A DNA stretch of 64,000 nt from a phage. The translations under genes were made by a program, and so were the position numbers. Below are positions 1 to 57,805 of this stretch, in pieces. Where the stretch lies: NCBI GenBank assembly GCA_027263115.1, contig GCA_027263115.1_3656.1. One strand, given 5' to 3'. The notes under the pieces were generated by a model that had not been told where the DNA came from, ran no database searches, and worked only from the letters and a program-made list of their open reading frames with translations. Within the stretch, counting starts at the first letter, position 1; each line of letters starts with the position of its first letter.

Positions 1-263
1 ACACCGATGCGGAAAACAATATCTGCTGGGAGTTCGAAACTGAAGATATCCATAAACTTTTCACCTTCCTAGGTATTAAGGTTGAGGCCAAGTTTGAAGA
101 AGGCGAGTGCGACGATTGTGGATTCTACGAGGTAACAGATTTCTATCTCCCAAGTGGTGAGAACCTTTACTATGAAAGCCACTTCGGCAACTCAAATATG
201 CCACAAGGTTGGGATGAGTTTTTTGAAATTGCGGAAGAGGAGCTGACATACCGTGATTATTGA
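1..263 (+). CDS. hypothetical protein, C-terminal fragment (gene begins upstream of window)
   Basis: Open frame from window edge to TGA at 261-263, no internal stop. Confidence 0.45.
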   Translation, partial: TDAENNICWEFETEDIHKLFTFLGIKVEAKFEEGECDDCGFYEVTDFYLPSGENLYYESHFGNSNMPQGWDEFFEIAEEELTYRDY

Positions 264-711
264 TACTGTAGCGGGAGATTTAATCTCCCTTTTTAAGAGC
301 GGTGCTGGTCACCTGATCCACGGTTGTAACTGCTTTCATACAATGGGTGCAGGCATAGCGAAAGATATTGCCCGTGAGTTCCCTCAAGCACTGGCAGCCG
401 ACAAAGAGACTGCCTATGGTAATCTGGACAAGCTGGGTATGTTTTCTTGTTGGGAGCATTTTGCCAAGAACAGGGTCGTATATGGAATCAACCTGTATAC
501 CCAGTTCTACCCAGGGCCCAATGCTGAATACTTCTCAATAATGAAAGGTTTTGAGCGAGTCAACGAGGTATTCAAAGGTGTGTCATTGCCGTTCTACATT
601 CCTAAAATTGGATGCGGTATTGGCGGTCTAAAGTGGGAACATGTAGAAGATGTAATTAATCTTGCAACCACAGATATTGATGTGGTTGTAGTAGAGTACA
701 AAAAGTGTTGA
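253..711 (+). CDS. macro-domain-like protein (ADP-ribose binding/processing fold)
   Basis: 152 aa, GTG start after GAGGAG; Gly-rich segments HGCNCFHTMGAGIAKDIAREFP and PKIGCGIGG resemble macrodomain loops. Confidence 0.6.
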   Translation: MIIDTVAGDLISLFKSGAGHLIHGCNCFHTMGAGIAKDIAREFPQALAADKETAYGNLDKLGMFSCWEHFAKNRVVYGINLYTQFYPGPNAEYFSIMKGFERVNEVFKGVSLPFYIPKIGCGIGGLKWEHVEDVINLATTDIDVVVVEYKKC

Positions 712-765: not shown

Positions 766-936
766 GTGGAGACTAAAATCTTAATTCTTGCTGTGGTAGA
801 TACAACCGAAGGAGCTATATTCGAATCTGCAGGGGGGTATTTCTACCTACCATACGGAAAAAGAACTTCCGAGCCAAGTAAAGATTCAATCCTCAAGGTG
901 TTCCCGTGTGCTTTCTGGCTGGAGATTTTGGTATAA
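766..936 (+). CDS. small hypothetical protein (56 aa)
   Basis: GTG start 5 nt after AGAGGAGAG; below 60-aa track cutoff; promoter immediately upstream. Confidence 0.4.
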   Translation: METKILILAVVDTTEGAIFESAGGYFYLPYGKRTSEPSKDSILKVFPCAFWLEILV

Positions 937-2540: not shown

Positions 2541-2850
2541 TATTTTAAGTTATCAGGTTGCCAGAGATCAGGAGGATTTCTAAAATGGATTTCCTCCTTT
2601 TGATATTTTACCTACCAGGATATTTTAAAATCCTTAGAAAATCAGAAAATGGATCGAAAACTAAAATGGATTTTTCAGAGCAGGCACGACGAGATGAACC
2701 ACTCATCCTATCGTCTGCACCATATTCCAGACCACCATTACAGATTTCCCGCACATGCTCACACCCTTCTACTAGAACTTCCCCCACTTACCCTTGACCT
2801 TTTATAGTAATAATCCAACCACTACCTTGAAGTTGTGGCGCAGCTTTCCA

Positions 2851-2938
2851 AGTACTCGATCTGTTTTTCGTTTCAAAGATTGAATTTTCTGAAAATTTTT
2901 CTCGATAAATTTCTCAGTACTCGATCTGTTTTTCGTTT
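2851..2938. repeat. direct repeat pair (22 bp AGTACTCGATCTGTTTTTCGTTT x2) in ORF-poor T-rich segment
   Basis: Identical copies at about 2851-2873 and 2916-2938, surrounded by related tttcgtttt / aaatggattt motifs. Confidence 0.6.
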
Positions 2939-3554
2939 TCTGAATCTGATTTTCTGGAAATCGTTCCGGCTCTCGACCTGAAATTTTTGGGGACGAAATC
3001 GATTTTTCGTTTTCAGAAATGGATTTTTAAAATTTCTATATGGGAATATTTTAGTGGATACTATTTTATAGGAAATTGTTACGGAGGGTAATTAGCGTGC
3101 TAATTAAATTTATTAAATGCGAGGAGTTCTCATTTAGAATTTTGAATGATAATCATTCTCGTTTGCAGAATAACGGGCAGGCCCGGTGATTGTCTCCCGG
3201 CCCCTACTGCCCCGGCTTGTTATTATAGTAACACACAGGACAAAGAAAGCAAGAAGTTTTTGCATAAATTTTTAGACGATAATGATAATCGTTCTCATTT
3301 CATGCAGCGCCCATCCCCGGTGGTTGTCTCCCCCGTCACCGGTGCCTGCCGTCCTTTCGATAGGTATATTTTGCCACCTGGCGGGGCCGCTGTCAACACT
3401 TTTCAAAAAAATTTCTAACCTGATGCGCTGACCGCTGCAACCTGGCGGGGCCAGCCTGGCAGGGCCTAACTGACCAGGTAGGAGAGAATGAAGGCTTGCA
3501 AACCTGGTGGGCCTATGCTATAGGATAGGTAACAATTGAAGAGGAGGTACAAAA

Positions 3555-3731
3555 ATGGAAGGTAATATGATCCCCCTGGAAAATGTAGCTATTAATGACG
3601 CTGAGGCTATCGCCCTGGTTGAAAAGGCTATGGCGGGAGCGTTGGAACATAAAGAAGAGTACGAAAAAATGATGGTTAACCTGGCAGGGGCGGCGGCTGG
3701 AGAATTCTACCCAAAAAATAATTTTAACTAA
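3555..3731 (+). CDS. small hypothetical protein (58 aa)
   Basis: ATG after GAGGAGG; below track cutoff; position confirmed relative to downstream ORF 3817. Confidence 0.5.
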   Translation: MEGNMIPLENVAINDAEAIALVEKAMAGALEHKEEYEKMMVNLAGAAAGEFYPKNNFN

Positions 3732-4558: not shown

Positions 4559-4954
4559 ATGAATAAGAACGTACGCCGCATCATGAACGAACTGGCAAAC
4601 GATGAAAAAATTATTGACATGCATTTATTCAACATTTGCCGCCGTTGTGTAACATATAACAACCGCGCCGCAAAAGCGCGTGAGATGAATGCGAAAGGCA
4701 CCTTAAAGCCCTTTCAGGTGGTTGTAAAATCTATAACCAGTGCAGCAGGCCAGGCGCATGACCACAACAACGAGAGCGCTAATATTGATCCGTCTTACGT
4801 AATGAAACGGATCCGGACTTGCAAGAATAAAGAGCAGGTGTATAACGTCATAGATTGGCTGGACTCCCTGGGTGATGTGGTTTACAATAGGTTTTCTGCA
4901 GCTATCGAGATCCAGCTTGACAGATTGGACGGGAAAGTACTGAAAACTTACTGA
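4559..4954 (+). CDS. hypothetical protein
   Basis: 131 aa, SD AAAGGAAAAAG. Confidence 0.6.
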   Translation: MNKNVRRIMNELANDEKIIDMHLFNICRRCVTYNNRAAKAREMNAKGTLKPFQVVVKSITSAAGQAHDHNNESANIDPSYVMKRIRTCKNKEQVYNVIDWLDSLGDVVYNRFSAAIEIQLDRLDGKVLKTY

Positions 4955-4955
4955 G

Positions 4956-5001
4956 TTTATTTTTAGATGGCCTTGACTCCAGGGCCATCAATAAAGTAAA
5001 C
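4956..5001. repeat. 46-bp intergenic repeat element, copy 1 (TTTATTTTTAGATGGCCTTGACTCCAGGGCCATCAATAAAGTAAAC)
   Basis: Near-identical copies at 5575-5620 and 9310-9355; contains ATGGCC/GGCCAT inverted repeat and TTGACT box. Confidence 0.7.
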
Positions 5002-5033
5002 TAACCACAGTTGAGCGGAAAGGGGGCTTAAAG

Positions 5034-5153
5034 ATGAGTACTACACGCCAGCACACAAAGGTAACTATTATCGTTTGCATCATTGGTTACATCCTGGCGC
5101 AAATGTTGATGGGTAGCGCCAACGGTATCGCAAAATTTTTCTTAAACTTTTAA
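5034..5153 (+). CDS. small hydrophobic peptide (39 aa)
   Basis: ATG after AAGGGGG; single TM-like helix; paralog-like to the 11513 peptide (shared S-x-NGI motif). Confidence 0.4.
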   Translation: MSTTRQHTKVTIIVCIIGYILAQMLMGSANGIAKFFLNF

Positions 5154-5181
5154 TTGACAAGCTAACTTAGATCAGTATACT
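5154..5181 (+). promoter_or_regulatory. sigma70-type promoter TTGACA-N16-TATACT
   Basis: Hexamers followed by GGGAA/TTCCC leader hairpin. Confidence 0.5.
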
Positions 5182-5231
5182 AAACACATAAACGGGAAAA
5201 CTTCCCAGAACACACAAAAGGAGAAAACACC

Positions 5232-5573
5232 ATGACTACTATGACCGCCGCAGAAAAAGCTATGCAGATCGCCGCGCTGAAAAAACAGATCGCAGACCTT
5301 GAGAATAAGATCGATAACTTTGAAATCGACGAGGACAAGTACGACGAAAACTATGATGAATGGTTAGACGAGATCTACGGCGAAATTATGATCGGAAACA
5401 TTTCTTTTCTTCCGTCGCGTATCCTCAAGGAGCTAGATCCTATCGCTTACCGCTGCGGATTTAGCGACTACATCGACAGCTTGGATATTGAGGACGATGA
5501 AGAATACCAGGAATTGCATACAGAGCTTGAAGAAGTGAAAGAAGAGCTTGCAGAACTGGAAGAAAACGAGTAA
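5232..5573 (+). CDS. highly acidic coiled-coil protein (DNA-mimic candidate)
   Basis: 113 aa, SD AAGGAG; roughly one third Asp/Glu with heptad-like N-terminus. Confidence 0.6.
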   Translation: MTTMTAAEKAMQIAALKKQIADLENKIDNFEIDEDKYDENYDEWLDEIYGEIMIGNISFLPSRILKELDPIAYRCGFSDYIDSLDIEDDEEYQELHTELEEVKEELAELEENE

Positions 5574-5574
5574 A

Positions 5575-5620
5575 TTTATTTTTAGATGGCCTTGACTCCA
5601 GGGCCATCAATAAAGTAAAC
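5575..5620. repeat. 46-bp intergenic repeat element, copy 2
   Basis: Identical to copy 1 over about 46 bp. Confidence 0.7.
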
Positions 5621-5662
5621 TTTATACTGTTAACACTGAACTAATGCATAGGAGTTAAAACC

Positions 5663-5908
5663 ATGGCAGCACTAATCACCAAATATTATGCCCCTACCAA
5701 CACCAAAAGCGCCCGTATCATGGTAAAAGGCTTCGGACGTAAAAAGGTTTACACCTGGGATTATGCCTTAGACACGGAAGACAACTACACCAACGCGATG
5801 ACCGATTTTATTAATGACCTGAACACGCGGATCTTGACAAATTATCAAATTACCGATATTGCCTATATAGGGGAAGGCGGGATCTGTTTTGTCGGTATCG
5901 TCAAATAA
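5663..5908 (+). CDS. hypothetical protein
   Basis: 81 aa, SD TAGGAG. Confidence 0.55.
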   Translation: MAALITKYYAPTNTKSARIMVKGFGRKKVYTWDYALDTEDNYTNAMTDFINDLNTRILTNYQITDIAYIGEGGICFVGIVK

Positions 5909-5983
5909 GCTGGTTTTTCGGTGGTCCTGGTAGCAGGGCCATCTATAAAGATAGTTTATCAACACAATGAAAGGAGAAAGTAC

Positions 5984-6331
5984 ATGATCAGCGGGGCTAG
6001 TTTTATTATTGGCGCTATTGCTACGGCTTTAATTGTAAACAAGATCCAGGATAAAAAGGAAAGTACCGCCCTTGCAGAATATCCATTTTGGACATTCAAC
6101 GATAATGAAGATTATATTATAAAGTATAAAAATAAAGAAGGTGACCAAGTAACACCGCGACCGATCCCGGCTTACAAAATGCAGGAAACACTGTACCGCC
6201 TGGAAGCGGGGGGCGCAAAAATTGTAGACTTTTGGGGATACGATCACACAGATCAGGAAGTTATAAAGCGCCGTATCCGGGCTATTCAGGCCAATATTGA
6301 AGTTAGCAAGGGGGGAATATATGAAGATTAA
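5984..6331 (+). CDS. hypothetical membrane-anchored protein
   Basis: ATG after AAAGGAGAAAG (start trimmed from track ORF 5921); N-terminal hydrophobic helix. Confidence 0.55.
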   Translation: MISGASFIIGAIATALIVNKIQDKKESTALAEYPFWTFNDNEDYIIKYKNKEGDQVTPRPIPAYKMQETLYRLEAGGAKIVDFWGYDHTDQEVIKRRIRAIQANIEVSKGGIYED

Positions 6332-6518
6332 TTTTGAGAAGATTGTAAAGCGATCTCATGATTCCGAAGATCTGCCGGAACGACGCCAGCGTAACAATAA
6401 ACTGAATAAGCCAAAAAGATTTGGGAAGATCTGGCGAAATCATTATGATCGTAAACTGCCGGGCCTGCTTTTGGAACGTGAACGACAGGCGGAACGATAC
6501 CGCCACAAAGACAAATAG
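6321..6518 (+). CDS. small basic protein
   Basis: ATG after AAGGGGGG, overlaps previous gene by 11 nt; Arg/Lys-rich. Confidence 0.45.
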   Translation: MKINFEKIVKRSHDSEDLPERRQRNNKLNKPKRFGKIWRNHYDRKLPGLLLERERQAERYRHKDK

Positions 6519-6525
6519 CAACCAA

Positions 6526-6553
6526 CGCCCCGCCATTGTGCGGGGCTTTTTAT
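6526..6553 (+). terminator. rho-independent terminator
   Basis: GCCCCG-loop-CGGGGC hairpin followed by TTTTTATTT. Confidence 0.6.
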
Positions 6554-6698
6554 TTCTATCCCGCCGATAGCGCCCCTGGTTGGCCCTACAAGCGCCATAA
6601 AGGCCCCTACCTATGCAATCCCCTTTATTAACCTGAAAACATCGCCCAGGGCCGTTTTATGGTGTTAAAATATTATTGATAGTTATTTTATTTAAAGC

Positions 6699-6727
6699 TT
6701 GACACCTTGGAATAGTCCGGATATACT
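6699..6727 (+). promoter_or_regulatory. sigma70-type promoter TTGACA-N17-TATACT
   Basis: Hexamers upstream of ORF 6763. Confidence 0.5.
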
Positions 6728-6762
6728 AACCACATCAAAGCAAGAAGGAAGGAGTAAACGCC

Positions 6763-7032
6763 ATGCGTAAATTAAAAAATTTTGATAAAGTTGATATTGT
6801 CCTGAATAATTTTTACTACTGCAATAACAAGGCCGTTTGGTGGCGTGATAGTTCCACCGATAAAGTCAAGGCGCGCTTTCTCCAGGGGCACTGGCAAGGC
6901 CGCCCAGTGATTAAAATCATGGGGCAATTGGTAGCGTTTAAAAATTGCCGCCGTGTTGATGACGTTGAAGAGATTTTAAACATTTTGCGCCACAATAATT
7001 TAAAAATAGTGTTGACAAGTAAATCTCAATAA
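6763..7032 (+). CDS. hypothetical protein
   Basis: 89 aa, SD GGAAGGAG. Confidence 0.55.
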   Translation: MRKLKNFDKVDIVLNNFYYCNNKAVWWRDSSTDKVKARFLQGHWQGRPVIKIMGQLVAFKNCRRVDDVEEILNILRHNNLKIVLTSKSQ

Positions 7033-7039
7033 GTATAAT
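7012..7039 (+). promoter_or_regulatory. sigma70-type promoter TTGACA-N16-TATAAT
   Basis: Consensus hexamers, then leader hairpin GGCGG...CCGCC. Confidence 0.55.
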
Positions 7040-7096
7040 TAAAAACACAGGCGGGAAAACTTACCGCCACTAACAAAGAAAACAGGAGAAAATATC

Positions 7097-7720
7097 ATGA
7101 CCACCGTTAACATTACCACAGGTTGCAATTTATCTTTCGACGTGCTGACCGACGAACAAAAAGAAAAAGCTATTGAAATGGTCCGCGAAAGAGAAGAACA
7201 CAGCGGAGAGGATTTTTTCGCAGAAAGTGTAATTGAATATTATAAAGAACAAGTTTTTCCAGAGTACGGCCTTGAAGATACCGATGTACATTGGTCCGGC
7301 TTTTGGTGCCAGGGTGACGGCGCGTCAATCAGTGCTGAAAACGTGGATTTAGAAAAATTCTTGCGTAAAGTAAAGGCCCTGACCAAGTTCCGATCAATTC
7401 GTCACTTGTTTGGCACAATGCACGATGGCGAGTTATCAGCCAGTATTGAACGCGACAAGTACAGCCATTACAGCCATGAAAACACTGTAAGCGGATACAT
7501 TGATACCACCTGGCTAGATCTGACCGCCAAACAAGAAAACAAAGTGGAAGACCTGGAAGAGCTGATCACCGAGACGGTACGGGAGCTATCCCGCAAGGTT
7601 TACGTAGACCTGGAGGAGGCCTATCTAGAACAGTTCACTACCGAAAACCTGATCGGCCTTATTGAGGCCAATGATTGGCGGTTTGATGTGGATGAATATG
7701 GAGAGATGAGTTTTTCATAA
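7097..7720 (+). CDS. acidic hypothetical protein (207 aa)
   Basis: Largest early ORF; SD CAGGAG; Asp/Glu-rich. Confidence 0.65.
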   Translation: MTTVNITTGCNLSFDVLTDEQKEKAIEMVREREEHSGEDFFAESVIEYYKEQVFPEYGLEDTDVHWSGFWCQGDGASISAENVDLEKFLRKVKALTKFRSIRHLFGTMHDGELSASIERDKYSHYSHENTVSGYIDTTWLDLTAKQENKVEDLEELITETVRELSRKVYVDLEEAYLEQFTTENLIGLIEANDWRFDVDEYGEMSFS

Positions 7721-7728
7721 ATAAAGTG

Positions 7729-7756
7729 TTGCAATAATCTAAAAACCTGCTATATT
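7729..7756 (+). promoter_or_regulatory. promoter TTGCAA-N16-TATATT with leader hairpin
   Basis: Followed by GGGGCAA-loop-TTGCCCC hairpin and CA-rich leader. Confidence 0.45.
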
Positions 7757-7809
7757 AAAACTCAAGGGGGCAAGACGTTTGCCCCACACAAAACAAAGAG
7801 GAAAACATT

Positions 7810-8190
7810 ATGAAAAACACTACTAAAGCTATTGACACCGTTATGTTTAACCTGGTTACCTTTCGCGAGGATATGAAAGATCTTCCACGTGAAACAGTGT
7901 GCGATCACATTGAAAACTATCGCAAACTAATCAAAGAGTTGCCTTTAAAACGTGACCAGTATGCGGCTAACGCTATGCTCAACGCCATGATCAAAAAGAT
8001 GATTCAGTGTGATTTAACCCTGGCCTATGATTATGCAGGTGGTCGTTTTGCAGTATACAATCAGCCCGTGCCTGGTATGGGCACCACCGAAGAATTGCAC
8101 GCGCTCAATCTAAAACAAGACGTGTGGGATAGTATGCCCCGCGTGGTGGTGTGGGCAGAAAGCGGAAAGATTTACGGCGATAATTTTTAA
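7810..8190 (+). CDS. hypothetical protein
   Basis: 126 aa, SD AAGAGGAAAA. Confidence 0.6.
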   Translation: MKNTTKAIDTVMFNLVTFREDMKDLPRETVCDHIENYRKLIKELPLKRDQYAANAMLNAMIKKMIQCDLTLAYDYAGGRFAVYNQPVPGMGTTEELHALNLKQDVWDSMPRVVVWAESGKIYGDNF

Positions 8191-8200
8191 TCAGGTAACA

Positions 8201-8226
8201 GGCGGCATATTTGCCGCCTTATTGTT
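8201..8226 (+). terminator. rho-independent terminator
   Basis: GGCGGCA-loop-GCCGCC hairpin followed by TTATTGTT. Confidence 0.55.
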
Positions 8227-8254
8227 AAACAGAACTGCAAAAGAGGTACATAGA

Positions 8255-8626
8255 ATGGAATTTATTATTTTGGCCGTATTAGTTGCCTTGTTTAACGCCT
8301 GGATCGCTGGCAAGATGGGTAGATCCGCCTTTTTATGGTTTATTATATCTATTTTCCTGGGGGTGGTTTCAACTATTGTACTTGTTATCCTTGCAATTGT
8401 TGACAAAGGTGATAATAGAAAGGGTAAAGTATTTTCCGACCTGTATGACGCGCAAACATTTGTCAACGCCTATTATAGTGATCTTCCAGTCTCCCTACGC
8501 TGCAGCCTTGCACAACAGGTTTTCGATGAAGCTAAAACCAGAGATCACGCCCATGAGATTTGTTTAACTGAGGCGGATCGCCTATTTGAGAGGAATAGAA
8601 AATATGTGGGCCAGCCGTTTAAATAA
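8255..8626 (+). CDS. hypothetical membrane protein (two predicted TM helices)
   Basis: ATG after AAAGAGGTA (start trimmed from track ORF 8222). Confidence 0.55.
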   Translation: MEFIILAVLVALFNAWIAGKMGRSAFLWFIISIFLGVVSTIVLVILAIVDKGDNRKGKVFSDLYDAQTFVNAYYSDLPVSLRCSLAQQVFDEAKTRDHAHEICLTEADRLFERNRKYVGQPFK

Positions 8627-8849
8627 TACCACGTTAATTAATCCCTTTGATGAAGATTTGAAGCCAGCCGCCTGGCGTGATGGATTCAATAACGAACGCT
8701 TTATTTTCAGGCCTGATCTTAAGGAATTTTATAACAATGGATCGAACAACGACAGAGATAATTTTTCTTGTGATGTGCGTGGTGATGGTACTCCTGGGGG
8801 CCATTGTAAACCACGTCACTACTACCAGGATGAAAGGGGGAGACGATGA
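8604..8849 (+). CDS. hypothetical protein
   Basis: ATG after GAGAGGAATAG, overlaps previous gene by 23 nt. Confidence 0.4.
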   Translation: MWASRLNNTTLINPFDEDLKPAAWRDGFNNERFIFRPDLKEFYNNGSNNDRDNFSCDVRGDGTPGGHCKPRHYYQDERGRR

Positions 8850-8965
8850 CAACCAAGGATAAGCCCCGCACCGATAAGGTGCGCCGGGTTATGGTATGGC
8901 TTGAGATCATCGCCCTTGAAATATTGTTAGGCGTAGGGATGTATTTTATCGCTGTAAGTAACTGA
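8846..8965 (+). CDS. small hydrophobic peptide (39 aa)
   Basis: ATGA overlap with previous stop, SD GGGGGAG, single TM-like helix. Confidence 0.4.
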   Translation: MTTKDKPRTDKVRRVMVWLEIIALEILLGVGMYFIAVSN

Positions 8966-8969
8966 TAAC

Positions 8970-9012
8970 GGCCCCCGATCCCTGGGGGCCTAACTTTTTA
9001 AAATTTTTTTTC
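8970..9012 (+). terminator. rho-independent terminator
   Basis: GGCCCCC-loop-GGGGGCC hairpin followed by long T-rich run. Confidence 0.6.
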
Positions 9013-9022
9013 TCCCTGAGTG

Positions 9023-9052
9023 TTGCAATCCGATCCAGAATATGGATAATAA
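9023..9052 (+). promoter_or_regulatory. promoter-like TTGCAA-N18-TAATAA
   Basis: Shares ATATGGATAATAA core with the 10186 promoter; followed by leader hairpin. Confidence 0.4.
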
Positions 9053-9106
9053 TAATCAACGGGGAGCTAATCCCCACCAACACAAAAACCAGAAAGGAGA
9101 AACAAA

Positions 9107-9307
9107 ATGAGCAACAATATCCGCGTTATTAACTTCAAAAAAGAAGAAAAAATTGCCGTGCTGATTGACGGTCAAGAAATCTTCAAGGGCTATTATGAAG
9201 ATCATCAAACGGCGATTAGTATCACTCGCGTGATTGGTTACCATAATTTTTACCCCCAAGGCGCTGAGGCGGCGGTTAAACGAATCAAAGAGATTGTAGG
9301 CCTGTAA
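9107..9307 (+). CDS. hypothetical protein
   Basis: 66 aa, SD AAAGGAGAAA. Confidence 0.55.
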   Translation: MSNNIRVINFKKEEKIAVLIDGQEIFKGYYEDHQTAISITRVIGYHNFYPQGAEAAVKRIKEIVGL

Positions 9308-9309
9308 AA

Positions 9310-9355
9310 TTTATTTTTAGATGGCCTTGACTTCAGGGCCATCAATAAAGTAAAT
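9310..9355. repeat. 46-bp intergenic repeat element, copy 3
   Basis: Two mismatches relative to copies 1 and 2. Confidence 0.65.
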
Positions 9356-9391
9356 TTAAACCCTGTTAAAAGACCACGCAGTTAACAAGGA

Positions 9392-9700
9392 GTGATAGAC
9401 ATGTTTATCCAGGCTAATAATCTTTATTTCTTTGATGGTCAGATCGTAGATGGTGTGGAAGTGGAGATCACCGGGTGCCCTGGCGGTCAGGCTATGACTT
9501 TTCGGAATAATGCCTTTGATGATTCTCATATCGTTATGAGAATGGAAGTTACGAAGCTGGACGACAAGAAAACACTTATTGACTATTCTGTGAAAGATCA
9601 TCCAGACTACCACATGATCTATGGTGATTTGTGCGTTGTTGACCGTGACAAGGTGGGCGGCATTGTGATCGCTATTGTGAACGATGTTTTCTCAAACTAA
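9392..9700 (+). CDS. hypothetical protein
   Basis: 102 aa, SD AAGGAG. Confidence 0.6.
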   Translation: MIDMFIQANNLYFFDGQIVDGVEVEITGCPGGQAMTFRNNAFDDSHIVMRMEVTKLDDKKTLIDYSVKDHPDYHMIYGDLCVVDRDKVGGIVIAIVNDVFSN

Positions 9701-9717
9701 TTTCAGCAGGTGATTTT

Positions 9718-10068
9718 ATGAAAATAAAACTATATTACCTTAATGAGCTTAACCCCCTTGCCCAGGTCCGCGCCATAGCTAATACCTTGATTTGTGAGAA
9801 ATCTGTATATTGTGTTGAGCTTAACGCCATGCGTGAACGTCTCAAAGGTGGTTACTTTGACATCCATACTGCAATCAACGGCCTGAATATGGAATTTATA
9901 CGCTTACGTAACAGCCGCTGGAATCTGGCAAGAATGGAACAAGATCCGGCCTACCTTCGTAAGCTGGTTATTGAAAATCATCTGATGTTTAATGCCGAGG
10001 GTGATTATTACCATTTTCACCGCAGACGCTGGTACCGTGGCGGCAATACAGGCAAGAATGCAAAATAA
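9718..10068 (+). CDS. hypothetical protein
   Basis: 116 aa ORF following previous gene. Confidence 0.5.
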   Translation: MKIKLYYLNELNPLAQVRAIANTLICEKSVYCVELNAMRERLKGGYFDIHTAINGLNMEFIRLRNSRWNLARMEQDPAYLRKLVIENHLMFNAEGDYYHFHRRRWYRGGNTGKNAK

Positions 10069-10103
10069 GGCCCCTAGCAGGGCCTGCAGCAATATAATCA
10101 CAT

Positions 10104-10137
10104 AAAGGCCATGCAACCGCATGGCCTTTATTATTTT
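10104..10137 (+). terminator. rho-independent terminator
   Basis: 11-bp stem AAAGGCCATGC/GCATGGCCTTT, then ATTATTTTGG. Confidence 0.65.
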
Positions 10138-10185
10138 GGCGTTACAACGGCATACGGGGCGCTTAAAAAATTTTTAAAGAAGTAC

Positions 10186-10215
10186 TTGCATCATTCCCGA
10201 CAATATGGATAATAA
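10186..10215 (+). promoter_or_regulatory. promoter-like TTGCAT-N18-TAATAA
   Basis: Paralog of the 9023 promoter, followed by GGGGG/CCCCC hairpin. Confidence 0.4.
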
Positions 10216-10270
10216 GAGTTGTCGAGGGGGAGGCCCCCAATCGTTGACCAGATAGATAGGAGTTAAAATC

Positions 10271-10555
10271 ATGGCTATTGTTACCGCTGGCGATGTAGTA
10301 GAAATGGAAGCAAAATACTTAAAAGCGGGTATGCACATCCTACGGAATGATCAAGAGTTATTATTAACGATGGTTGACTATAATCCCGGCCAGGATTATC
10401 CAAGCATCGACTACTTTTTTGAGTATGTTGATGAAGAGTTGAAAGAGGATGAGGCATATTGCGGTGAGTTCTGCAACTTCTTTTGTCCTGATGAGGTTGT
10501 AAAGGTTATTTATCAACCTGGCGTACCTTTCCCACTGCACGCTATCAATAAATAA
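10271..10555 (+). CDS. hypothetical protein
   Basis: 94 aa, SD TAGGAG. Confidence 0.6.
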   Translation: MAIVTAGDVVEMEAKYLKAGMHILRNDQELLLTMVDYNPGQDYPSIDYFFEYVDEELKEDEAYCGEFCNFFCPDEVVKVIYQPGVPFPLHAINK

Positions 10556-10609
10556 ACCTGGCGGGGCCGAAAAGGCCCCAATTATGAAAATAAAGAGAGG
10601 TAAATCATC

Positions 10610-10843
10610 ATGATGGAACAAATTAAACGCGCTGAGGCTATTAATGGCAATGTGATCTATTTTGTCAGCAAAAACGAAAAAGGCGTACCATATGCGGCGG
10701 TAATAGTACAACCTGACGGCGATTATTGGTTTACTGTGTACGGCGCTTATTCTTTTGGGCGTCCAGTGCATGATAAAATTTTGAAAGTAGCGAACCCTAC
10801 CGGGAAGAATATCACAGCAGAAAAATTTTTTGAAAATAGTTGA
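10610..10843 (+). CDS. hypothetical protein
   Basis: 77 aa, SD AGAGAGGTAAA. Confidence 0.55.
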   Translation: MMEQIKRAEAINGNVIYFVSKNEKGVPYAAVIVQPDGDYWFTVYGAYSFGRPVHDKILKVANPTGKNITAEKFFENS

Positions 10844-10867
10844 CATGACCATATAAGACTGTAATAT
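10840..10867 (+). promoter_or_regulatory. sigma70-type promoter TTGACA-N16-TAATAT
   Basis: Hexamers then leader hairpin GGGGC/GCCCC. Confidence 0.5.
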
Positions 10868-10918
10868 ATAAATCAAAGGGGGCAACAAGCCCCACCAACC
10901 ACAAAGAGGATAAAAATC

Positions 10919-11098
10919 ATGGCTATTATTGCAAAGACTGAGATCGTAGGCTTAGATTCTATTCTACTCGCATATGAGGAAGCTATAGAAATGTATGTGG
11001 TTTCCTACGGTGAATATATCCGTGAATATAAATCTATTGATCTAGCTTTTGAATGTTATATTCGCCAGGTCAATAAAGCATATGATGATTATCGTTAA
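10919..11098 (+). CDS. small hypothetical protein (59 aa)
   Basis: ATG after AAGAGGATAAAAA; below track cutoff. Confidence 0.5.
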   Translation: MAIIAKTEIVGLDSILLAYEEAIEMYVVSYGEYIREYKSIDLAFECYIRQVNKAYDDYR

Positions 11099-11189
11099 AA
11101 TAGTTTGACAACAAACAACCATCTAACAAAGCATAATACATAAGGTGGTAGAATGATCCGCCACCTGGAACAAAGAAGAGGTAAACACC

Positions 11190-11435
11190 ATGAAAAGCAA
11201 TAAAGGTTATAACGGTTACAAAAACAAAACTCATTGGAATGTAAGCCTTTGGATTAATAACGATGAGTCATTGTACCGGTTGGCCCAAGGCTTTATTAAC
11301 GCCAATGCTAATCGTAATGATGCGGCGCGGGATATGATGCTTTTTCTGGAGCTAACCGGACAAGATAAGACCCCGGACGGCTTCAAGTACAGCACTACGG
11401 CGATCCGTGCCGCGATGGTTGGAATGAAACACTAA
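11190..11435 (+). CDS. hypothetical protein
   Basis: 81 aa, SD AAGAGGTAAA; preceded by GGTGG...CCACC leader hairpin. Confidence 0.55.
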   Translation: MKSNKGYNGYKNKTHWNVSLWINNDESLYRLAQGFINANANRNDAARDMMLFLELTGQDKTPDGFKYSTTAIRAAMVGMKH

Positions 11436-11512
11436 AAGCATATAGCCGCCTTACCCTGGGGCCGCTGCTACGGCCCCATGAATAAGGTTACTAACAGAAG
11501 AGAATAAACACC

Positions 11513-11617
11513 ATGAAACAAAAATTAATTGATGCTGTGATCCTGGTTATTGCCTTAGGTATTGGCCTGATTGCAACCATGGCTAATGTGATCTTGTCTT
11601 CCAACGGTATCGGGTGA
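11513..11617 (+). CDS. small hydrophobic peptide (34 aa)
   Basis: ATG after leader hairpin and AGAAGAGAATAAA; TM-like; shares SSNGI motif with the 5034 peptide. Confidence 0.4.
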   Translation: MKQKLIDAVILVIALGIGLIATMANVILSSNGIG

Positions 11618-11626
11618 GGTTGACAA

Positions 11627-11842
11627 ATGATCACTAACAAAACAGGAAAAACAGAATTTTTACGCAACTTACAGATCGGCAAGCCTGAGATCTGGCATTG
11701 CACTAAAACACCACGTGACGAAATGAAAGACTTCACCGCCACGCTGCAACGGGTAAAGATATCCATCACGCAGAAAAAGGCCTTGCTAGTGGTGGAAGGT
11801 GAGATCCCCCAAACCGTTGTTATAGTTGAGCGTACAGCATAG
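11627..11842 (+). CDS. hypothetical protein
   Basis: 71 aa, weak SD GAGGT. Confidence 0.45.
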   Translation: MITNKTGKTEFLRNLQIGKPEIWHCTKTPRDEMKDFTATLQRVKISITQKKALLVVEGEIPQTVVIVERTA

Positions 11843-11933
11843 TTTAATTTATAGAGATACCTGAAAATTAACCAATAAAGCATAAACAGGCGGTTACCGC
11901 CGCCTTAAACGTAGCAGAAAGAGGATAGACACA

Positions 11934-12218
11934 ATGAAAAAGATGATCGCAGTGGTTGCCCTAGTTGTTGGACTTAATGCGCCTGTAATGGCTAAAGAGC
12001 TGGCAAAAGAGGTTAATCTAACGGATATTCATGCCGTCAATCAAATCGGGGTTACTTATCGCTTATGCCTTGCCGCTAAAACTTTTAATGACGGCACAAC
12101 AGAGTACTACGGATTCGAGGGTATCCGGTGCGGTGAGCTTGCTCGCGACCTTAAGGAAGATCCAGATCTGGAAGATCTACCCATCACCGTAAACGGTAAA
12201 GCTTACGTAAACCGTTAA
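11934..12218 (+). CDS. secreted/periplasmic small protein
   Basis: 94 aa, SD AAGAGGA; N-terminal signal-peptide-like MKKMIAVVALVVGLNAPVMA. Confidence 0.6.
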   Translation: MKKMIAVVALVVGLNAPVMAKELAKEVNLTDIHAVNQIGVTYRLCLAAKTFNDGTTEYYGFEGIRCGELARDLKEDPDLEDLPITVNGKAYVNR

Positions 12219-12220
12219 CC

Positions 12221-12355
12221 ATGAGAAAGATAATCATCACCTTGGGGATTGTGGTAGCAATACTGGCGCTCTTTCCCCTTATGGTTAGGTATGTGCTGAT
12301 CAGTGTTGTCCTGATAGTCAGCGATCTATTGGAAACGGTTGGCACCTTGTTTTAA
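12221..12355 (+). CDS. small hydrophobic peptide (44 aa)
   Basis: Starts 3 nt after previous stop, no clear SD, strongly hydrophobic. Confidence 0.3.
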   Translation: MRKIIITLGIVVAILALFPLMVRYVLISVVLIVSDLLETVGTLF

Positions 12356-12368
12356 AGAGCGATAAAAA

Positions 12369-12560
12369 ATGAATATCGAACAAGTTAGAAAGGTATTAGC
12401 GGTACTGCGTTATCATAATCATAGAAAGGTCATAGACGATCCTGATTATGTTGATTCAAGTCTAGAAGAGGATACACTACAAGCCATAAGTAACATGCAA
12501 GAATTGCTAAAGCGCATGACAGAGAAAAACAGACCGGACTACATAGGCGAAAAAATATAA
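12369..12560 (+). CDS. hypothetical protein
   Basis: 63 aa ORF in gene array. Confidence 0.5.
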   Translation: MNIEQVRKVLAVLRYHNHRKVIDDPDYVDSSLEEDTLQAISNMQELLKRMTEKNRPDYIGEKI

Positions 12561-12607: not shown

Positions 12608-12687
12608 TACTTATTCTACGGCAGGCACCTGGCGACGGGGGGAGACAATCACCGGGCCTGCCTGTCATACAAGAACTATAAAAACCG

Positions 12688-13806: not shown

Positions 13807-14226
13807 ATGAACATTAAATCTAATAATCCGGCATATAGCTTTGATAACGCTTTTTGTCACGGTCCGGCGGCGAAAGGATTCGAAATCGATGGTAAACTAA
13901 TTATTGTCAATGTTGACGGGGAAGAGGTTGCAGTATATCCGGTGGCAGACGTAAAAAGCCGTTTACAATGCCGCATTGATGTTACCGCCTATCAGCTTGA
14001 TCCGGTCCGCATAGTTGCCCTGGTCCTGGAAGAAGAAATTAAAGCCATGCACCATAGCAACAGGTTTATTGGTGACGCTCAGGATAATATGAAGGTGTGC
14101 CGCCATAAAGTTAATGAAGTGCTTAAAGAGTACGGCTATAAAGATCTTATGATCAAACGTGATGAAAAATTCCGGTACCGTAACGACCTGGCAAATCGAA
14201 TCTATGAAATATACGAATCATTATAA
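13807..14226 (+). CDS. hypothetical protein
   Basis: 139 aa, SD AAGAGGTAAAAA; last gene of rightward early array. Confidence 0.6.
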   Translation: MNIKSNNPAYSFDNAFCHGPAAKGFEIDGKLIIVNVDGEEVAVYPVADVKSRLQCRIDVTAYQLDPVRIVALVLEEEIKAMHHSNRFIGDAQDNMKVCRHKVNEVLKEYGYKDLMIKRDEKFRYRNDLANRIYEIYESL

Positions 14227-14244
14227 TTTTTTAACTGAATTATC

Positions 14245-14270
14245 AAGGGGCTTAGGCCCCTTTCTTTTTG
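14245..14270 (+). terminator. rho-independent terminator closing the early array
   Basis: AAGGGGC-loop-GCCCCTT hairpin followed by TCTTTTTG. Confidence 0.65.
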
Positions 14271-14877
14271 TCTGATCTTCCCCCTACCATAAACGGCCCT
14301 ACCTGGCAAGTGGAATAATTGACGAGCCATCAACCCCACACACTGTACAAATATACATGTAAAATAACTATTGCATAACTTTTCATTGTGTGGTAGCAGG
14401 GCTATTTTTACCCGTTTTTCCTTCCAAAATTGCACGTAATGCAGCTATTGCACAAAATTTAACCTGATGCATATCTTCAGTGTCTTGTCAACAACTAAAA
14501 ATCTTTATAAGTCATGCACTTACATAACCACAAAAGCGTGCTCTACGTGAAAAATCGAGTATAACTATAGCCGCCAGATCTCAGAATTTACGTACGCTCA
14601 CCATTCTATAGTCTGCTAAGTATTTATTCCAACCATAGAATAACGGAATAGTCAATACCTGCATAAAATAATTATTCGTGTAAACTGCATAACATAAATC
14701 AGCTTAGGTGTCAACATTTTTCGTAAACAGTCTGAAATTATCACGATGAGTTATCATAAACAGAGAAATCTTTAGTCGTCTAATGTTTACTGTACGTTAC
14801 TATACTAACTGAAATCATTAGATGACTAATAGAAAGATAAGAAATAATTAACAATACAATTATTTTATCTGTAACAA

Positions 14878-15165
14878 TAAGGCAACTATGCAAACGAATG
14901 GCATGGCGCGACGGAGTCGCGACATAATATAAAAGCAGTAACCATCACCCCCGTGATAGTTTGTCTGCAATCTATTAATCAGATCATAGTTGCCTTGTAT
15001 TTAGTTAATCATGACATAACAAGCAAGGCAACTATAGATCTGCTAATAGTTGCCCTGCTTTTATATTATGTCATAGGAACGCCCGAAGGGGTGACCTAGT
15101 CACCTGGCATAGCCAGCGAAAGATTATTAACTTGGTAATAGTTATCATGCAAACGAATGGCATGG
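14878..15165. repeat. nested palindromic region: 18-bp inverted repeat (about 14921-14938 vs 15055-15072), 19-bp direct repeat ATGCAAACGAATGGCATGG x2, AGGCAACTAT/ATAGTTGCC inverted copies
   Basis: Reverse complements and direct copies read directly in the sequence; no ORF with a ribosome-binding site. Confidence 0.65.
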
Positions 15166-15179
15166 CTTATCATCTCTGT

Positions 15180-15420
15180 GTAAACAGTCAATCATGTAAA
15201 CTATTAGATATGTAAACAGTAAAGGGCGTGAACAGTAAGCGAGGGAATAGTAATAGCGTGAATAGTGACAGCGTAAACAGTGACAGCGTAAACAGTCAGG
15301 CATGTCAATTATGTCATATTGTGTCACCATTATGTCACTATTGTGTCACCAGTATGCCCAGTATGTCAATTGAGTCTAAAGTGTCAAAGGTGTCAGACAA
15401 GTTTTTCTCCTCTTTGTCAA
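15180..15420. repeat. tandem short-repeat arrays (GTAAACAGT family incl. 15-mer TGACAGCGTAAACAG x2; then 22-bp TTATGTCAYTATTGTGTCACCA x2 with further TGTCA units)
   Basis: Direct reading; track ORFs here are low-complexity artefacts of the repeats. Confidence 0.7.
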
Positions 15421-18801: not shown

Positions 18802-19119
18802 TTAACGTTCTACAAAAATACCGTTCAGTTCAATAACCAGGAATTTCTGGTCTTCACTATCGTCTCGTGCCAGCACCTCACAGACGTATCGGTCATCCCC
18901 ATCATCATCGCAGTCAAATACAAGACTGAGGACTTTATCATGGTAAACCTTCGCCACTACCGCCTCGTAAGTATTGCCGATTGTGAATCCAAGATAATCT
19001 CCGATGCATTTGACAACAACATGGTCTCCAGCATTTAAGTCAATCTTCGTCATTACTGCGCTCCTTGGGTAATAATACTGTATGTAAAACTTTAACCAGA
19101 GATGTGAATAACGCCCCAA
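18802..19119 (-). CDS. hypothetical protein
   Basis: 105 aa, tiled array. Confidence 0.55.
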   Translation of the reverse strand: MGRYSHLWLKFYIQYYYPRSAVMTKIDLNAGDHVVVKCIGDYLGFTIGNTYEAVVAKVYHDKVLSLVFDCDDDGDDRYVCEVLARDDSEDQKFLVIELNGIFVER

Positions 19120-19208
19120 AACACACCGATAGCGCTAAAACAGACAAGGCCATCATTAAAGCTTCAGTAAAATCAGTCATTCCTCACCTCTTGTTAGTCA
19201 CTATACTA

Positions 19209-22248: not shown

Positions 22249-22350
22249 TTAATAGCCGTAACCTAACACATTAACTACAACTGCGATTGCAAACATAATT
22301 TCAAAGCATGCAATCTCTACACTTGGGACTAATTTCTTAATCACGCCCAT
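22249..22350 (-). CDS. small hydrophobic peptide (33 aa)
   Basis: ATG after GGAGAATGAGGTG on minus strand, just downstream of hpf. Confidence 0.35.
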   Translation of the reverse strand: MGVIKKLVPSVEIACFEIMFAIAVVVNVLGYGY

Positions 22351-22359: not shown

Positions 22360-22677
22360 TCATTCTCCAAAGTCAATCTTTACTTTTCCTTTCCCTTTAC
22401 CTTTCTTTCCACCGCATTTAGCCAGCTGACGTGCTGCAACATCTACCATACGGTCAGTTGCCTCGTAAGCATCACTGCCTTTAGCTTTGGCAATAACTTC
22501 TTTTCCAGAAGTGTCAAAAATGAACGCCATAACTTCCTGGTGATCATTTTCAACTTTTACACTTACACGTGCATGATTTACAGAAGGATGTAGACGCTCC
22601 AGTTTTGACATTTTGTGGGAAATGAAAGACACCATACCTTCGGTGATTTCTACGTTGCCAGTAATCTCAATTTGCAT
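22360..22677 (-). CDS. hpf: ribosome hibernation promoting factor (HPF/RaiA family)
   Basis: 105 aa; MQIEITGNVEITEGM...LERLHP...ARVSVKVE...EVIAKAKGSDAYEATDRMVDVAARQLAK parallels E. coli HPF; lysine-rich tail. Confidence 0.8.
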   Translation of the reverse strand: MQIEITGNVEITEGMVSFISHKMSKLERLHPSVNHARVSVKVENDHQEVMAFIFDTSGKEVIAKAKGSDAYEATDRMVDVAARQLAKCGGKKGKGKGKVKIDFGE

Positions 22678-26086: not shown

Positions 26087-26286
26087 CCCTCATCGCACGT
26101 CTGATATAACCACTCTATAAAATCTTGATACCATTCGCCCTCTGAGCGCTCCGTAGGCCAATAATCTTCACCCTCTCGTGCATTAAAATCTGAGTATTCA
26201 ACTTTCCACTCCTTTACCAGCTCGTGGAGAAGGTTTTCAGCCTGCTCTAAAGATTTATTTTTTACCATTGCTGTCTCCTTTTTCAA
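26083..26286 (-). CDS. hypothetical protein
   Basis: 67 aa, ATGA coupling, SD AAAGGAGA. Confidence 0.5.
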   Translation of the reverse strand: MKKETAMVKNKSLEQAENLLHELVKEWKVEYSDFNAREGEDYWPTERSEGEWYQDFIEWLYQTCDEG

Positions 26287-26351
26287 GATAGTTATACATC
26301 AGAACTGCACCACCTAAGATGGCTACCAGTAACAATATCCCAGATAGCATC

Positions 26352-26504
26352 TCAATAAACATGGCTTGAAACACTGGAAGGTCTCCCTAAATTAACGCAC
26401 CATTTTAAATACATGCTCTTTTCCCATAAAGGTGCCTGGCTAAGATCTGCGTAGAACGCAATCTCTTTAAGAACAGTATAGATAGTTTTAGGTGCGGTCT
26501 CCAT
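26352..26504 (-). CDS. small hypothetical protein (50 aa)
   Basis: Internal ATG preceded by AGGAAGGAGA (track ORF 26352..26540 trimmed). Confidence 0.35.
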   Translation of the reverse strand: METAPKTIYTVLKEIAFYADLSQAPLWEKSMYLKWCVNLGRPSSVSSHVY

Positions 26505-31435: not shown

Positions 31436-31786
31436 TTACTGCAACAGTTTTTCAATAGCCGCTTCCATGCTGCTTGCAACAGCCTGAACTCGGATATTCA
31501 TCTCTTCTTGGTGGATCAGCTCCTTAAGCTCTTTAATGGTAAATTCTTTAGAGAAACCTTCCACCATAATCTTGTGTAAGGCTTCTTGCGTATCTACTTG
31601 CAAGAACTTTTCCAGTTTGTTGGCAGAGGCTTCTAAATCAGCCCGAATGCGAGGGTCATCTGTGCGATTCAGCATTAGGCGTAAGCCATCAAGATTAGTA
31701 GAAATAGCGTCTGCATGTTGAGTAACTAACCGTGGCAAAATGAGATCTACAAACTTATTAGCCAAATCGATACGTTCTTGTGTCAC
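31436..31786 (-). CDS. hypothetical protein
   Basis: 116 aa, GTG start overlapping stop of upstream micro-ORF. Confidence 0.5.
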   Translation of the reverse strand: MTQERIDLANKFVDLILPRLVTQHADAISTNLDGLRLMLNRTDDPRIRADLEASANKLEKFLQVDTQEALHKIMVEGFSKEFTIKELKELIHQEEMNIRVQAVASSMEAAIEKLLQ

Positions 31787-31896
31787 TGTTGCACCCCCTC
31801 TTCATCCTCATGATGTTTCTTTTCACGCTTGTGTTTTTTCTTGAGCTCAAGCGCAATTTCTTTTTTGTACGCCTTCTTCAAGGCTTTTTTAGCCAT
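31783..31896 (-). CDS. small highly basic protein (37 aa)
   Basis: ATG after GAGGAGGTG; Lys-rich; GTGA coupling with downstream gene. Confidence 0.45.
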   Translation of the reverse strand: MAKKALKKAYKKEIALELKKKHKREKKHHEDEEGVQQ

Positions 31897-48341: not shown

Positions 48342-48812
48342 TCAATCCAGGACAACACCGCCTGCCTTTTTAAACACCTCGATCAACTTCTCGATCTTCT
48401 GTTCATGCTGACCATATCCAGCGCCGGGTAACGAAGCCCAGCGGGAACGGCATTTGCGGATAGCTTCGTGGATACGCCCTTCGTCAATGTCGGCGAGAGC
48501 CTTGCACTCACGGATCAGTTGCAACGCAATCTTGTCCTGACTGGCAGGGCCAAAATCTGGTAATCCTAACTGTTTCATGTAGTGTTTAGCAAACTTCTCC
48601 AAAACCTGGTAACGCCCAGCAGCGGAGGAGGTAAGTTTAGCATTTAGCTTAACGTAAACACCTGGATGCTTGCTGTAATCGCTGAACAGCTTGCCGCCGA
48701 CTATGACATCGTACCCCCGATCCTTGGTAGGTTGTCTACCATTATCTGTTCCTTCCGAATATGCGATCATATCCAAGAAAGCTTTTCGTTGAACATTTTT
48801 ATCAAGTTTCAT
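48342..48812 (-). CDS. endolysin, lambda R-like lytic transglycosylase
   Basis: 156 aa; near-colinear with lambda R (QRKAFLDM...SEGTDNGRQ...GYDVIVGG...WASLPGAGYGQ). Confidence 0.9.
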   Translation of the reverse strand: MKLDKNVQRKAFLDMIAYSEGTDNGRQPTKDRGYDVIVGGKLFSDYSKHPGVYVKLNAKLTSSAAGRYQVLEKFAKHYMKQLGLPDFGPASQDKIALQLIRECKALADIDEGRIHEAIRKCRSRWASLPGAGYGQHEQKIEKLIEVFKKAGGVVLD

Positions 48813-57601: not shown

Positions 57602-57605
57602 AATT

Positions 57606-57692: not shown

Positions 57693-57805
57693 AATTTATA
57701 TTTTAGATGCATAAATAATACAGATAATGGCATTGATATTTATCGTCGTTTATACTAGTCACTAACTGCTCGAAAATCAGTGTCATTATCAGTATAATTT
57801 ACAAA

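Follow-up and report, generated by a model that had tools for sequence, protein, structure and literature searches.

Conserved short genes, most encoding predicted membrane peptides, beneath a 60-amino-acid display cut-off in an rV5-like phage contig

Does a track that displays only open reading frames (ORFs) of 60 amino acids or more hide real genes in a phage genome, and if so, what do those genes encode? The question is raised by a 64,000-nucleotide stretch of phage DNA (contig GCA_027263115.1_3656.1 of GenBank assembly GCA_027263115.1; hereafter the window), for which the first-pass annotation listed nine shorter ORFs as plausible missing genes. Five of these lie between positions 5034 and 12355, and several were described as hydrophobic micro-proteins with good ribosome-binding sites. 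Here each ORF is named by its first coordinate, with (-) marking the minus strand. We conclude, with a probability of roughly 0.8, that these are real, conserved and already annotated small genes, most of which encode membrane peptides.

Conservation and coding potential

For bases 5000-12400, matches were obtained in 289 phage records. Escherichia phage FFH2 ranks first, with 96.8% identity at 100% coverage, and numerous other Vequintavirus genomes come next. Judged by its sequence, the source of the window is an rV5-like (Vequintavirus) virulent coliphage. The gene tables of FFH2, AlexBoehm, FV3 and rV5 are collinear with the window, and the plus-strand block from position 1 to ~13,700 is the counterpart of the rV5 arm that carries short genes 164-238. 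Phages of the rV5 type are used for the typing and biocontrol of E. coli O157, and roughly two in three of their genes lack an assigned function. The short-gene arm 164-238 is one of four transcription units in rV5, whose genome carries 33 sigma70-type promoters (Kropinski et al. 2013, PMC3606486).

The comparative set comprised 27 related loci from GenBank phage records; a scan of IMG/VR with the neighbouring 207-amino-acid protein as query returned only two close relatives. Counts of intact ORFs were obtained by tblastn against the related loci. The ratio of nonsynonymous to synonymous polymorphism (pN/pS) was calculated from substitutions counted along a minimum spanning tree of the distinct haplotypes, with a one-sided binomial test against neutrality. 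The five ORFs in the 5034-12355 range are as follows.

5034..5153, plus strand: 39-amino-acid predicted single-pass membrane micro-protein of the rV5 ORF193 family (phrog_16391, match 1-39/39, E 2e-31); pN/pS 0.14, P 6e-6, intact in 14/15 loci
8846..8965, plus strand: 39-amino-acid predicted membrane micro-protein of the rV5 ORF181 family (phrog_13629); pN/pS 0.20, P 6e-6, intact in 16/16 loci
10919..11098, plus strand: 59-amino-acid acidic, probably soluble protein, rV5 ORF174 (phrog_9374); pN/pS 0.11, P 5e-12, intact in 15/15 loci
11513..11617, plus strand: 34-amino-acid predicted membrane micro-protein of the rV5 ORF173 family (phrog_14631); pN/pS 0.35, P 2e-5, intact in 17/17 loci, Stephanstirmvirinae included
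12221..12355, plus strand: 44-amino-acid very hydrophobic peptide of the rV5 ORF170 family (phrog_16005); pN/pS 0.52, P 1.5e-3, intact in 13/14 loci, with a displaced stop codon in V18

The first-pass annotation had proposed examining whether the frames are conserved in related phages and what dN/dS they show there, and had named a lack of both ribosome occupancy and conservation as what would speak against genes at these positions. Instead, the frames proved to be conserved and under purifying selection, which supports its main suggestion that real genes are hidden by the 60-amino-acid display cut-off.

Bare existence of the ORFs is weak evidence, and it is conservation that carries the coding case. 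The coordinates, lengths, and start and stop codons of all nine listed ORFs are as first described; shuffled gaps, however, give an ATG-initiated ORF of equal or greater length with P between 0.004 (12221) and 0.16 (8846). The ORFs might be chance frames in intergenic spacers, whose sequence is kept for promoters, terminators or RNA structure and not for protein. Consistent with such an origin, a shuffled gap holds an equally long ATG-initiated ORF with P = 0.10-0.16 for 5034, 8846 and 11513, and promoter and terminator modules do occur in the gaps. However, third codon positions take most of the substitutions, with pN/pS of 0.11-0.52, and in a six-frame control of 5034, 8846, 10919, 11513 and 12221 the annotated frame alone was free of stop codons in every haplotype. 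Single-codon insertions and deletions in the most distant relative (locus L005) are in frame, the alleles of 11513 retain their length and hydrophobicity although their proteins are 47% divergent, and 12221 fills a 153-nucleotide gap, for which the shuffled expectation is the P = 0.004 given above. We regard the chance-frame explanation as highly improbable.

A low pN/pS was not accepted by itself as proof of coding, since antisense shadows of real genes score low too. The six-frame control and a control on gap ORFs were added for this reason, and the argument requires that no other frame in the gaps be intact. For each ORF but 12221, pN/pS was lowest in the annotated frame; at 12221 one stop-containing antisense frame was about equal (0.47 versus 0.52). 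As a local null, all 210 ORFs of 30-59 amino acids at positions 1-32,400 of the window were scored. Among the gap ORFs (n=39), only 5034, 10919, 12221 and 26255(-) were both intact in relatives and constrained, and the remainder had pN/pS of about 0.6 or more or were broken in relatives, which also argues against chance frames.

The most persuasive single coding observation is the existence of two allele classes of 11513 of constant length. These classes, MKQKLIDAVILVIALGIGLIATMANVILSSNGIG and MLEKIFTVVVVGLALSVGVVATMANMILSSHGIG, are 53% identical, and each is hydrophobic and exactly 34 codons long. Their N-terminal 20 residues differ, the C-terminal ATM(A/S)N(V/M)ILSS(N/H)GIG is common to both, and the classes are found in both Vequintavirinae and Stephanstirmvirinae. 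A tblastn search with this 34-amino-acid peptide reaches only E 5e-3 even at 100% identity and recovers one allele class, making it a poor gauge of distribution.

The description of the ORFs as unannotated holds for the initial track with its 60-amino-acid cut-off; public records (rV5, FV3, AlexBoehm, V18, HdK5 and NHEP1) and PHROGs, by contrast, already contain them. Each of the nine ORFs has an end-to-end match to its own PHROG, in every case a family without assigned function (E 2e-20 to 3.5e-43). In the rV5 record (DQ832317, deposited in 2006), 5034 corresponds to ORF193, 8846 to ORF181, 10919 to ORF174, 11513 to ORF173 and 12221 to ORF170, in the same order and with the same lengths as in the window, and with proteins 80-100% identical, the differences being allelic. 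All five are annotated in AlexBoehm, all nine in FV3 and most in V18, HdK5 and NHEP1, and public protein collections contain the exact sequences of 7/9 ORFs, each as a 'hypothetical protein'. Transmembrane prediction with TMHMM and Phobius had already classed gp193, gp181, gp173, gp170 and gp145 as 'membrane protein, 1 TMD' (one transmembrane domain; Table S3 of PMC3606486). The genes have thus been known and annotated since the deposit of the rV5 genome, and they represent no new kind of element. Public annotation is inconsistent: inoa and Murica omit 5034, inoa also omits 11513 and 12221, and FFH2 has a minus-strand ORF of 130 amino acids in place of 11513 and 11627.

Six further small ORFs complete the set; the last two were outside the list of the first-pass annotation.

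766..936, plus strand: 56-amino-acid protein, gp208 of the rV5 paper by order and size (phrog_15268); pN/pS 0.12-0.23; adjoins the Macro-domain gene 253..711
3555..3731, plus strand: 58-amino-acid soluble protein with a strong Shine-Dalgarno (SD) sequence (phrog_21957)
22249..22350, minus strand: 33-amino-acid predicted single-pass membrane peptide, rV5 gp145 (phrog_15151); directly 3' of the ribosome hibernation/S30AE-family gene 22360..22677(-)
31783..31896, minus strand: 37-amino-acid Lys-rich, highly charged peptide, rV5 gp118 (phrog_7670); grand average of hydropathy (GRAVY) -1.75, strong SD
19040..19180, minus strand: 46-amino-acid predicted single-pass membrane micro-protein, rV5 gp156 / FV3_00147; intact in 6/6 loci, pN/pS 0.24, best 19-residue Kyte-Doolittle window 2.34
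26255..26374, minus strand: 39-amino-acid predicted single-pass membrane micro-protein of the rV5 gp131 family; pN/pS 0.08, P 1e-8, best 19-residue Kyte-Doolittle window 2.35

Taken with the five above, these indicate that at least 11 real genes within the first 32 kb of the window fall below the display threshold, seven of them for membrane micro-proteins. In A135, EI-SP-GF and ECO111 5-P the 3555 gene is either disrupted or has diverged, and we therefore consider it dispensable. The 22249(-) protein falls in a 90%-identity cluster with 58 members, the commonest of which is found on 753 contigs.

Six of the listed peptides had been called hydrophobic. This is borne out for five of them (5034, 8846, 11513, 12221 and 22249(-)), whose best 19-residue Kyte-Doolittle windows are 2.08-2.94, whereas no more than 4.2% of the 407 ORFs of 30-59 amino acids in the window attain 2.0; it does not apply to the Lys-rich 31783(-). 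The good ribosome-binding sites claimed for the same peptides are likewise found in part. Predicted pairing with the anti-SD sequence is strong for 766, 3555, 5034, 8846 and 31783(-), which at -9.1 to -13.3 kcal/mol rank among the best 0.5-2% of small ORFs. It is fair for 22249(-) (-6.9 kcal/mol) and moderate for the probably soluble protein 10919 (-5.8 kcal/mol), but weak for 11513 (-2.9 kcal/mol), and no SD is present at 12221 (+0.6 kcal/mol).

Several points weigh against our conclusion. Among them are the weak SD of 11513, the missing SD of 12221 and the low pN/pS that antisense shadows of long genes can also have. As a measure, pN/pS along a spanning tree is approximate: it ignores recombination, and its input was pre-filtered for an intact frame (few sequences were excluded). 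For 22249(-), intact in 6/6 loci, pN/pS is 0.71 on 7 substitutions and hence uninformative, and for 31783(-), intact in 3/3 loci, 4 substitutions are too few to judge selection. In the literature, we found no experimental work on the translation, membrane insertion or timing of these peptides. Finally, the function suggested below draws on analogy, namely with T4 Imm and Sp and with PhiNM1 Gp11.

Gene context and expression signals

The 5034 peptide begins with a basic N-terminus (MSTTRQHTK), continues with a predicted transmembrane helix that spans roughly residues 10-28 and ends in a C-terminus with the conserved SAN..AKFFLNF; its SD has a predicted pairing energy of -10.7 kcal/mol. Two sequence elements adjoin the genes 5034 and 8846.

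4953..5003, plus strand: copy of a 51-nucleotide hairpin-plus-promoter repeat module, with TTGACT-18-TAAACT at 4973-5002, directly 5' of 5034
8970..8990, plus strand: terminator-like hairpin of 8 pairs (7 G-C) followed by a T-rich tail, 5 nucleotides past 8846

The first belongs to a repeat family (D1) with four copies, at 4953-5003, 5572-5622, 5907-5957 and 9307-9357. In each, a G+C-rich hairpin carries the -35 hexamer TTGACT in the loop, and TAAACT follows 18 nucleotides further on. By its sequence the repeat resembles a terminator and a promoter combined in one module ahead of short genes. A promoter scan places the next promoter, TTGACA-16-TATACT, at 5154-5181, 1 nucleotide past the 5034 stop codon, and the rV5 record carries the annotated sigma70 promoter P192 at the equivalent position. 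Lying between the repeat module and this promoter, 5034 thus has its own expression signals.

The 8846 gene is the last of a three-gene cassette (8255..8626 / 8604..8849 / 8846..8965), in which its start overlaps the stop of 8604..8849 (ATGA), and 8604..8849 in turn overlaps the gene for a 123-amino-acid membrane protein at 8255..8626. The peptide has a variable basic N-terminal tail and a transmembrane helix, VWLEIIALEILLGVGMYFIA, that contains two Glu residues and shows no variation among the relatives. A search of 1.84 billion representative proteins yielded a single further cluster at the 50%-identity level; it is represented by P0147, which is 63% identical and retains both Glu. The cassette closes with the strong terminator-like hairpin at 8970..8990, and Murica and HdK5 have an annotated terminator at the same place.

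Further downstream, 10919, 11513, 11627 and 12221 form a module. The 10919 protein is also present in Justusliebigvirus loci, at 93-97% identity. The ATG of the gene that follows 11513 (11627) lies 9 nucleotides past its stop, and a GAGG that overlaps this stop (GTGAGG) is located 8 nucleotides upstream of that ATG. A 12-codon N-terminal extension is annotated for rV5 ORF173; in the window that extension is closed by a stop. The 12221 ATG is found 2 nucleotides past the stop of 11934..12218 (TAAccATG), a plus-strand gene whose 94-amino-acid product has a predicted Sec-type signal peptide (MKKMIAVVALVVGLNAPVMA, followed by KE).

A comparison of positions 10600-12400 with loci L023-L026 revealed that the module with 10919, 11513, 11627 and 12221 has ~80% DNA identity between Vequintavirinae and Stephanstirmvirinae, and that the remainder of the 7.4-kb region has no detectable similarity to those loci. 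The sequence comparison suggests exchange of the module between the two subfamilies. The pair 11934..12218 and 12221 is shared with Stephanstirmvirinae, and Murica-type phages retain only the first gene.

In the 12221 family, S34 and D35 are invariant and P19 and Y24 nearly so; the C-terminus reads ...DLLETVGTLF in the window and ...DLVLYINSLF in rV5. A profile search recovered 40 homologous clusters, in which every match with a named source is an rV5-like or Stephanstirmvirinae phage. Murica, A135 and EI-SP-GF lack exactly 12230-12354 but still have the genes on either side, and such a clean deletion indicates that 12221 is dispensable. AlphaFold2 models the family as a single continuous helix (pLDDT, the predicted local distance difference test, 94.8); a two-helix hairpin found no support in this model, which leaves the topology unsettled. 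In UniRef one 12221 homologue is labelled DUF3096, but this label was not reproduced; among family members the strongest Pfam match was DUF7396 (E 0.013, for a cut-off of 27 bits).

The strand of 11513 has to be considered separately. If the true gene at this place were the 130-amino-acid minus-strand ORF at 11491..11883, annotated as ORF155 in FFH2, then 11513..11617 and 11627..11842 would be its antisense shadows. This ORF is the longest at that place, and pN/pS in the antisense -1 frame is moderately low (0.61 in the part opposite 11513, 0.21 in the part opposite 11627). It is, however, interrupted by in-frame stops in FV3, V18, HdK5, B15 and PD211, has no PHROG match and is oriented opposite to every neighbouring gene, whereas the plus-strand 11513 and 11627 are intact in 17/17 and 16/17 loci, with pN/pS of 0.35 and 0.09. 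We judge a minus-strand gene to be extremely improbable here. A second minus-strand ORF of FFH2, ORF157 (window 11070..11234), is intact in only 1/11 loci. Both FFH2 ORFs are interrupted in the majority of relatives and are without a family, and ORF155 and ORF157 are probably public mis-annotations.

The peptides at 5034 and 11513 had also been reported to share an S-x-NGI motif, which could make them paralogues of one family with this motif at the C-terminus. The motif does occur near the C-terminus of both window peptides, but orthologues do not conserve it and the families are unrelated. The 5034 orthologues read SANGV, SANSV, SANSF and, in rV5, SANDF, and in the other allele class of 11513 its place is taken by SSHGIG. 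In a profile-profile comparison (hhalign) the probability of relatedness of the 5034 and 11513 families is 1.4%, and other pairs of peptide families compared in the same way equally gave no relationship. Nor is a shared word of this kind unusual, as at least one shared 4-of-5 word arises among nine such peptides in 99% of shuffles. The sharing of S-x-NGI is a coincidence, and common descent of the two peptides, refuted by these alignments and comparisons, receives almost no credence from us.

An exact 23-nucleotide inverted repeat, GGCAGGCCCGGTGATTGTCTCCC, occurs at 3176-3198 on the plus strand and at 12640-12662 on the minus strand, extending to 29 nucleotides at 93%, where none is expected by chance. 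The two copies are located on either side of the 9.4-kb gene block with the five ORFs of the 5034-12355 range, each in a gap that has no conserved ORF. The repeat has no Rfam match, and an exact copy is present at one or the other site in six related loci. A binding site and a module boundary are among the possibilities for it.

Possible functions of the membrane peptides

The first-pass annotation had offered three functions for small membrane peptides of this kind: membrane-depolarizing toxins, holin regulators and superinfection-exclusion factors. Searches of all nine peptides against Pfam, NCBIfam and PADLOC returned nothing above threshold.

We tentatively propose that the membrane peptides are accessory inner-membrane factors that act on the host envelope for takeover or exclusion, a possibility that, by analogy with known systems, we hold to be somewhat less probable than its negation. 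The seven predicted membrane peptides (5034, 8846, 11513, 12221, 22249(-), 19040(-) and 26255(-)) have 33-46 amino acids, comprise barely more than one hydrophobic helix each and belong to mutually unrelated families. Under the positive-inside rule, the short basic N-terminus of most of them predicts single-pass insertion into the host inner membrane with the N-terminus inside. The four on the plus strand (5034, 8846, 11513 and 12221) are situated in the arm of short genes without assigned function that is rich in sigma70-type promoters. Within this arm, 11513 and 12221 would be expressed as parts of an operon, 12221 presumably relying on translational coupling and 11513 on its weak SD. The peptides would be made early, from promoters used by the host RNA polymerase, and then inserted into the inner membrane. 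There they may bind or perturb host envelope proteins, for takeover of the cell or exclusion of competing phages and not for lysis, as dispensable accessory factors. Accessory status is indicated by the precise excision of 12221 from three phages that keep its flanks and by the decay of 3555 in three. As conserved and narrowly distributed membrane peptides, they would by analogy be reasonable candidates for host-takeover or exclusion factors.

A role in lysis, whether as holins, antiholins or holin regulators, would fit their small size and predicted transmembrane segment (Kyte-Doolittle 2.08-2.94, and 1 TMD for the rV5 equivalents), and the neighbouring 123-amino-acid membrane protein at 8255..8626 is called a 'putative holin' in the BASEL annotation. 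Yet the peptides have no charged hydrophilic C-terminal tail, ending in AKFFLNF, FIAVSN, SSNGIG, TVGTLF and LGYGY, and none matches an annotated lysis PHROG. They are encoded among sigma70-type promoters, 16-43 kb from the endolysin gene (phrog_90, E 2e-56) at 48342..48812(-). The holin proposed by the rV5 authors is gp129, a protein with 2 TMDs encoded in the other arm, and 12221 is dispensable. A lysis role is in our view very unlikely, and holin regulation the least likely of the three functions offered.

Membrane-depolarizing toxins of the type I kind, serving in host shut-down, would resemble these peptides in size, in their single hydrophobic helix and in a basic N-terminus like that of Hok/TisB-type peptides, and the two conserved intramembrane Glu of 8846 could line an oligomeric pore. 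However, no toxin family was matched in Pfam or NCBIfam and none in PADLOC, and an Rfam scan of the window found transfer RNAs (tRNAs) only, with no antitoxin RNA. Such toxins are usually kept under tight translational repression, which the strong SDs of 5034 and 8846 make less likely here, and, on general grounds, early loss of proton-motive force would be harmful to a phage with a large replication programme. We consider depolarizing toxins unlikely.

For exclusion, the nearest comparison is with Imm (83 amino acids) and Sp (97 amino acids) of T4, small inner-membrane proteins for superinfection exclusion that are early and non-essential. Like the rV5 peptides they are small membrane proteins of a large virulent coliphage, which makes a functional analogy plausible; they are, however, two to three times longer and show no similarity in PHROGs or Pfam. 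A link to any characterized exclusion protein was not found, with matches confined to PHROGs without assigned function and none in Pfam.

AcrZ and MgrB are examples of bacterial small membrane-protein regulators. Such regulators are single-helix proteins of 30-50 amino acids, in which a conserved face of the transmembrane helix is thought to bind a larger membrane protein (PMC12648545). The invariant transmembrane helix of 8846 fits this pattern, although these regulators are encoded by the host and are not homologous to it. PhiNM1 Gp11, a small membrane protein of a staphylococcal phage recovered in an early-gene toxicity screen, is reported to inhibit peptidoglycan synthesis and thereby to block cell division (PMC11237401). 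It exemplifies the class of mechanism that we propose, an early small membrane protein of a phage directed against a host envelope process; the host and phage are different, however, there is no homology, and a function is reported for Gp11 whereas the rV5 peptides are known from sequence alone.

More specifically, 8846 or another of the peptides could be a sequence-dependent modulator or inhibitor of a host inner-membrane protein, or an unrecognized superinfection-exclusion factor of rV5-like phages, an idea that we regard as doubtful. The 8846 peptide would be the best candidate for such a role, given its invariant transmembrane helix, its two conserved intramembrane Glu and its position as the coupled last gene of a membrane-protein cassette. 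The second would be 12221, on account of its coupling to a signal-peptide protein.

Other features of the window

The genes neighbouring the micro-ORFs were scanned for domains, and none was informative. Elsewhere in the short-gene arm, a T7 gp1.1-like protein is encoded at 6321-6518 on the plus strand, and the Macro domain at 253-711 is Tk.4-like. Three direct repeats of 47-57 nucleotides, with the core TCGATCTGTTTTTCGTTT and a spacing of 65-74 nucleotides, occupy the ORF-free stretch at 2842-3027, where such short ORFs as occur are not conserved in relatives.

A second ORF-free stretch, at ~14000-17000, contains short repeats at 15177-15637 and seems to match the box that the rV5 paper marks as 'non-coding', between genes 163 and 164. 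The GC skew changes sign near 17-18 kb, at the flip in gene orientation. Seven tRNA genes are located at 57527-58338 on the plus strand (Arg, Tyr, Ser, one with an odd anticodon loop, Thr, Met and Pro).

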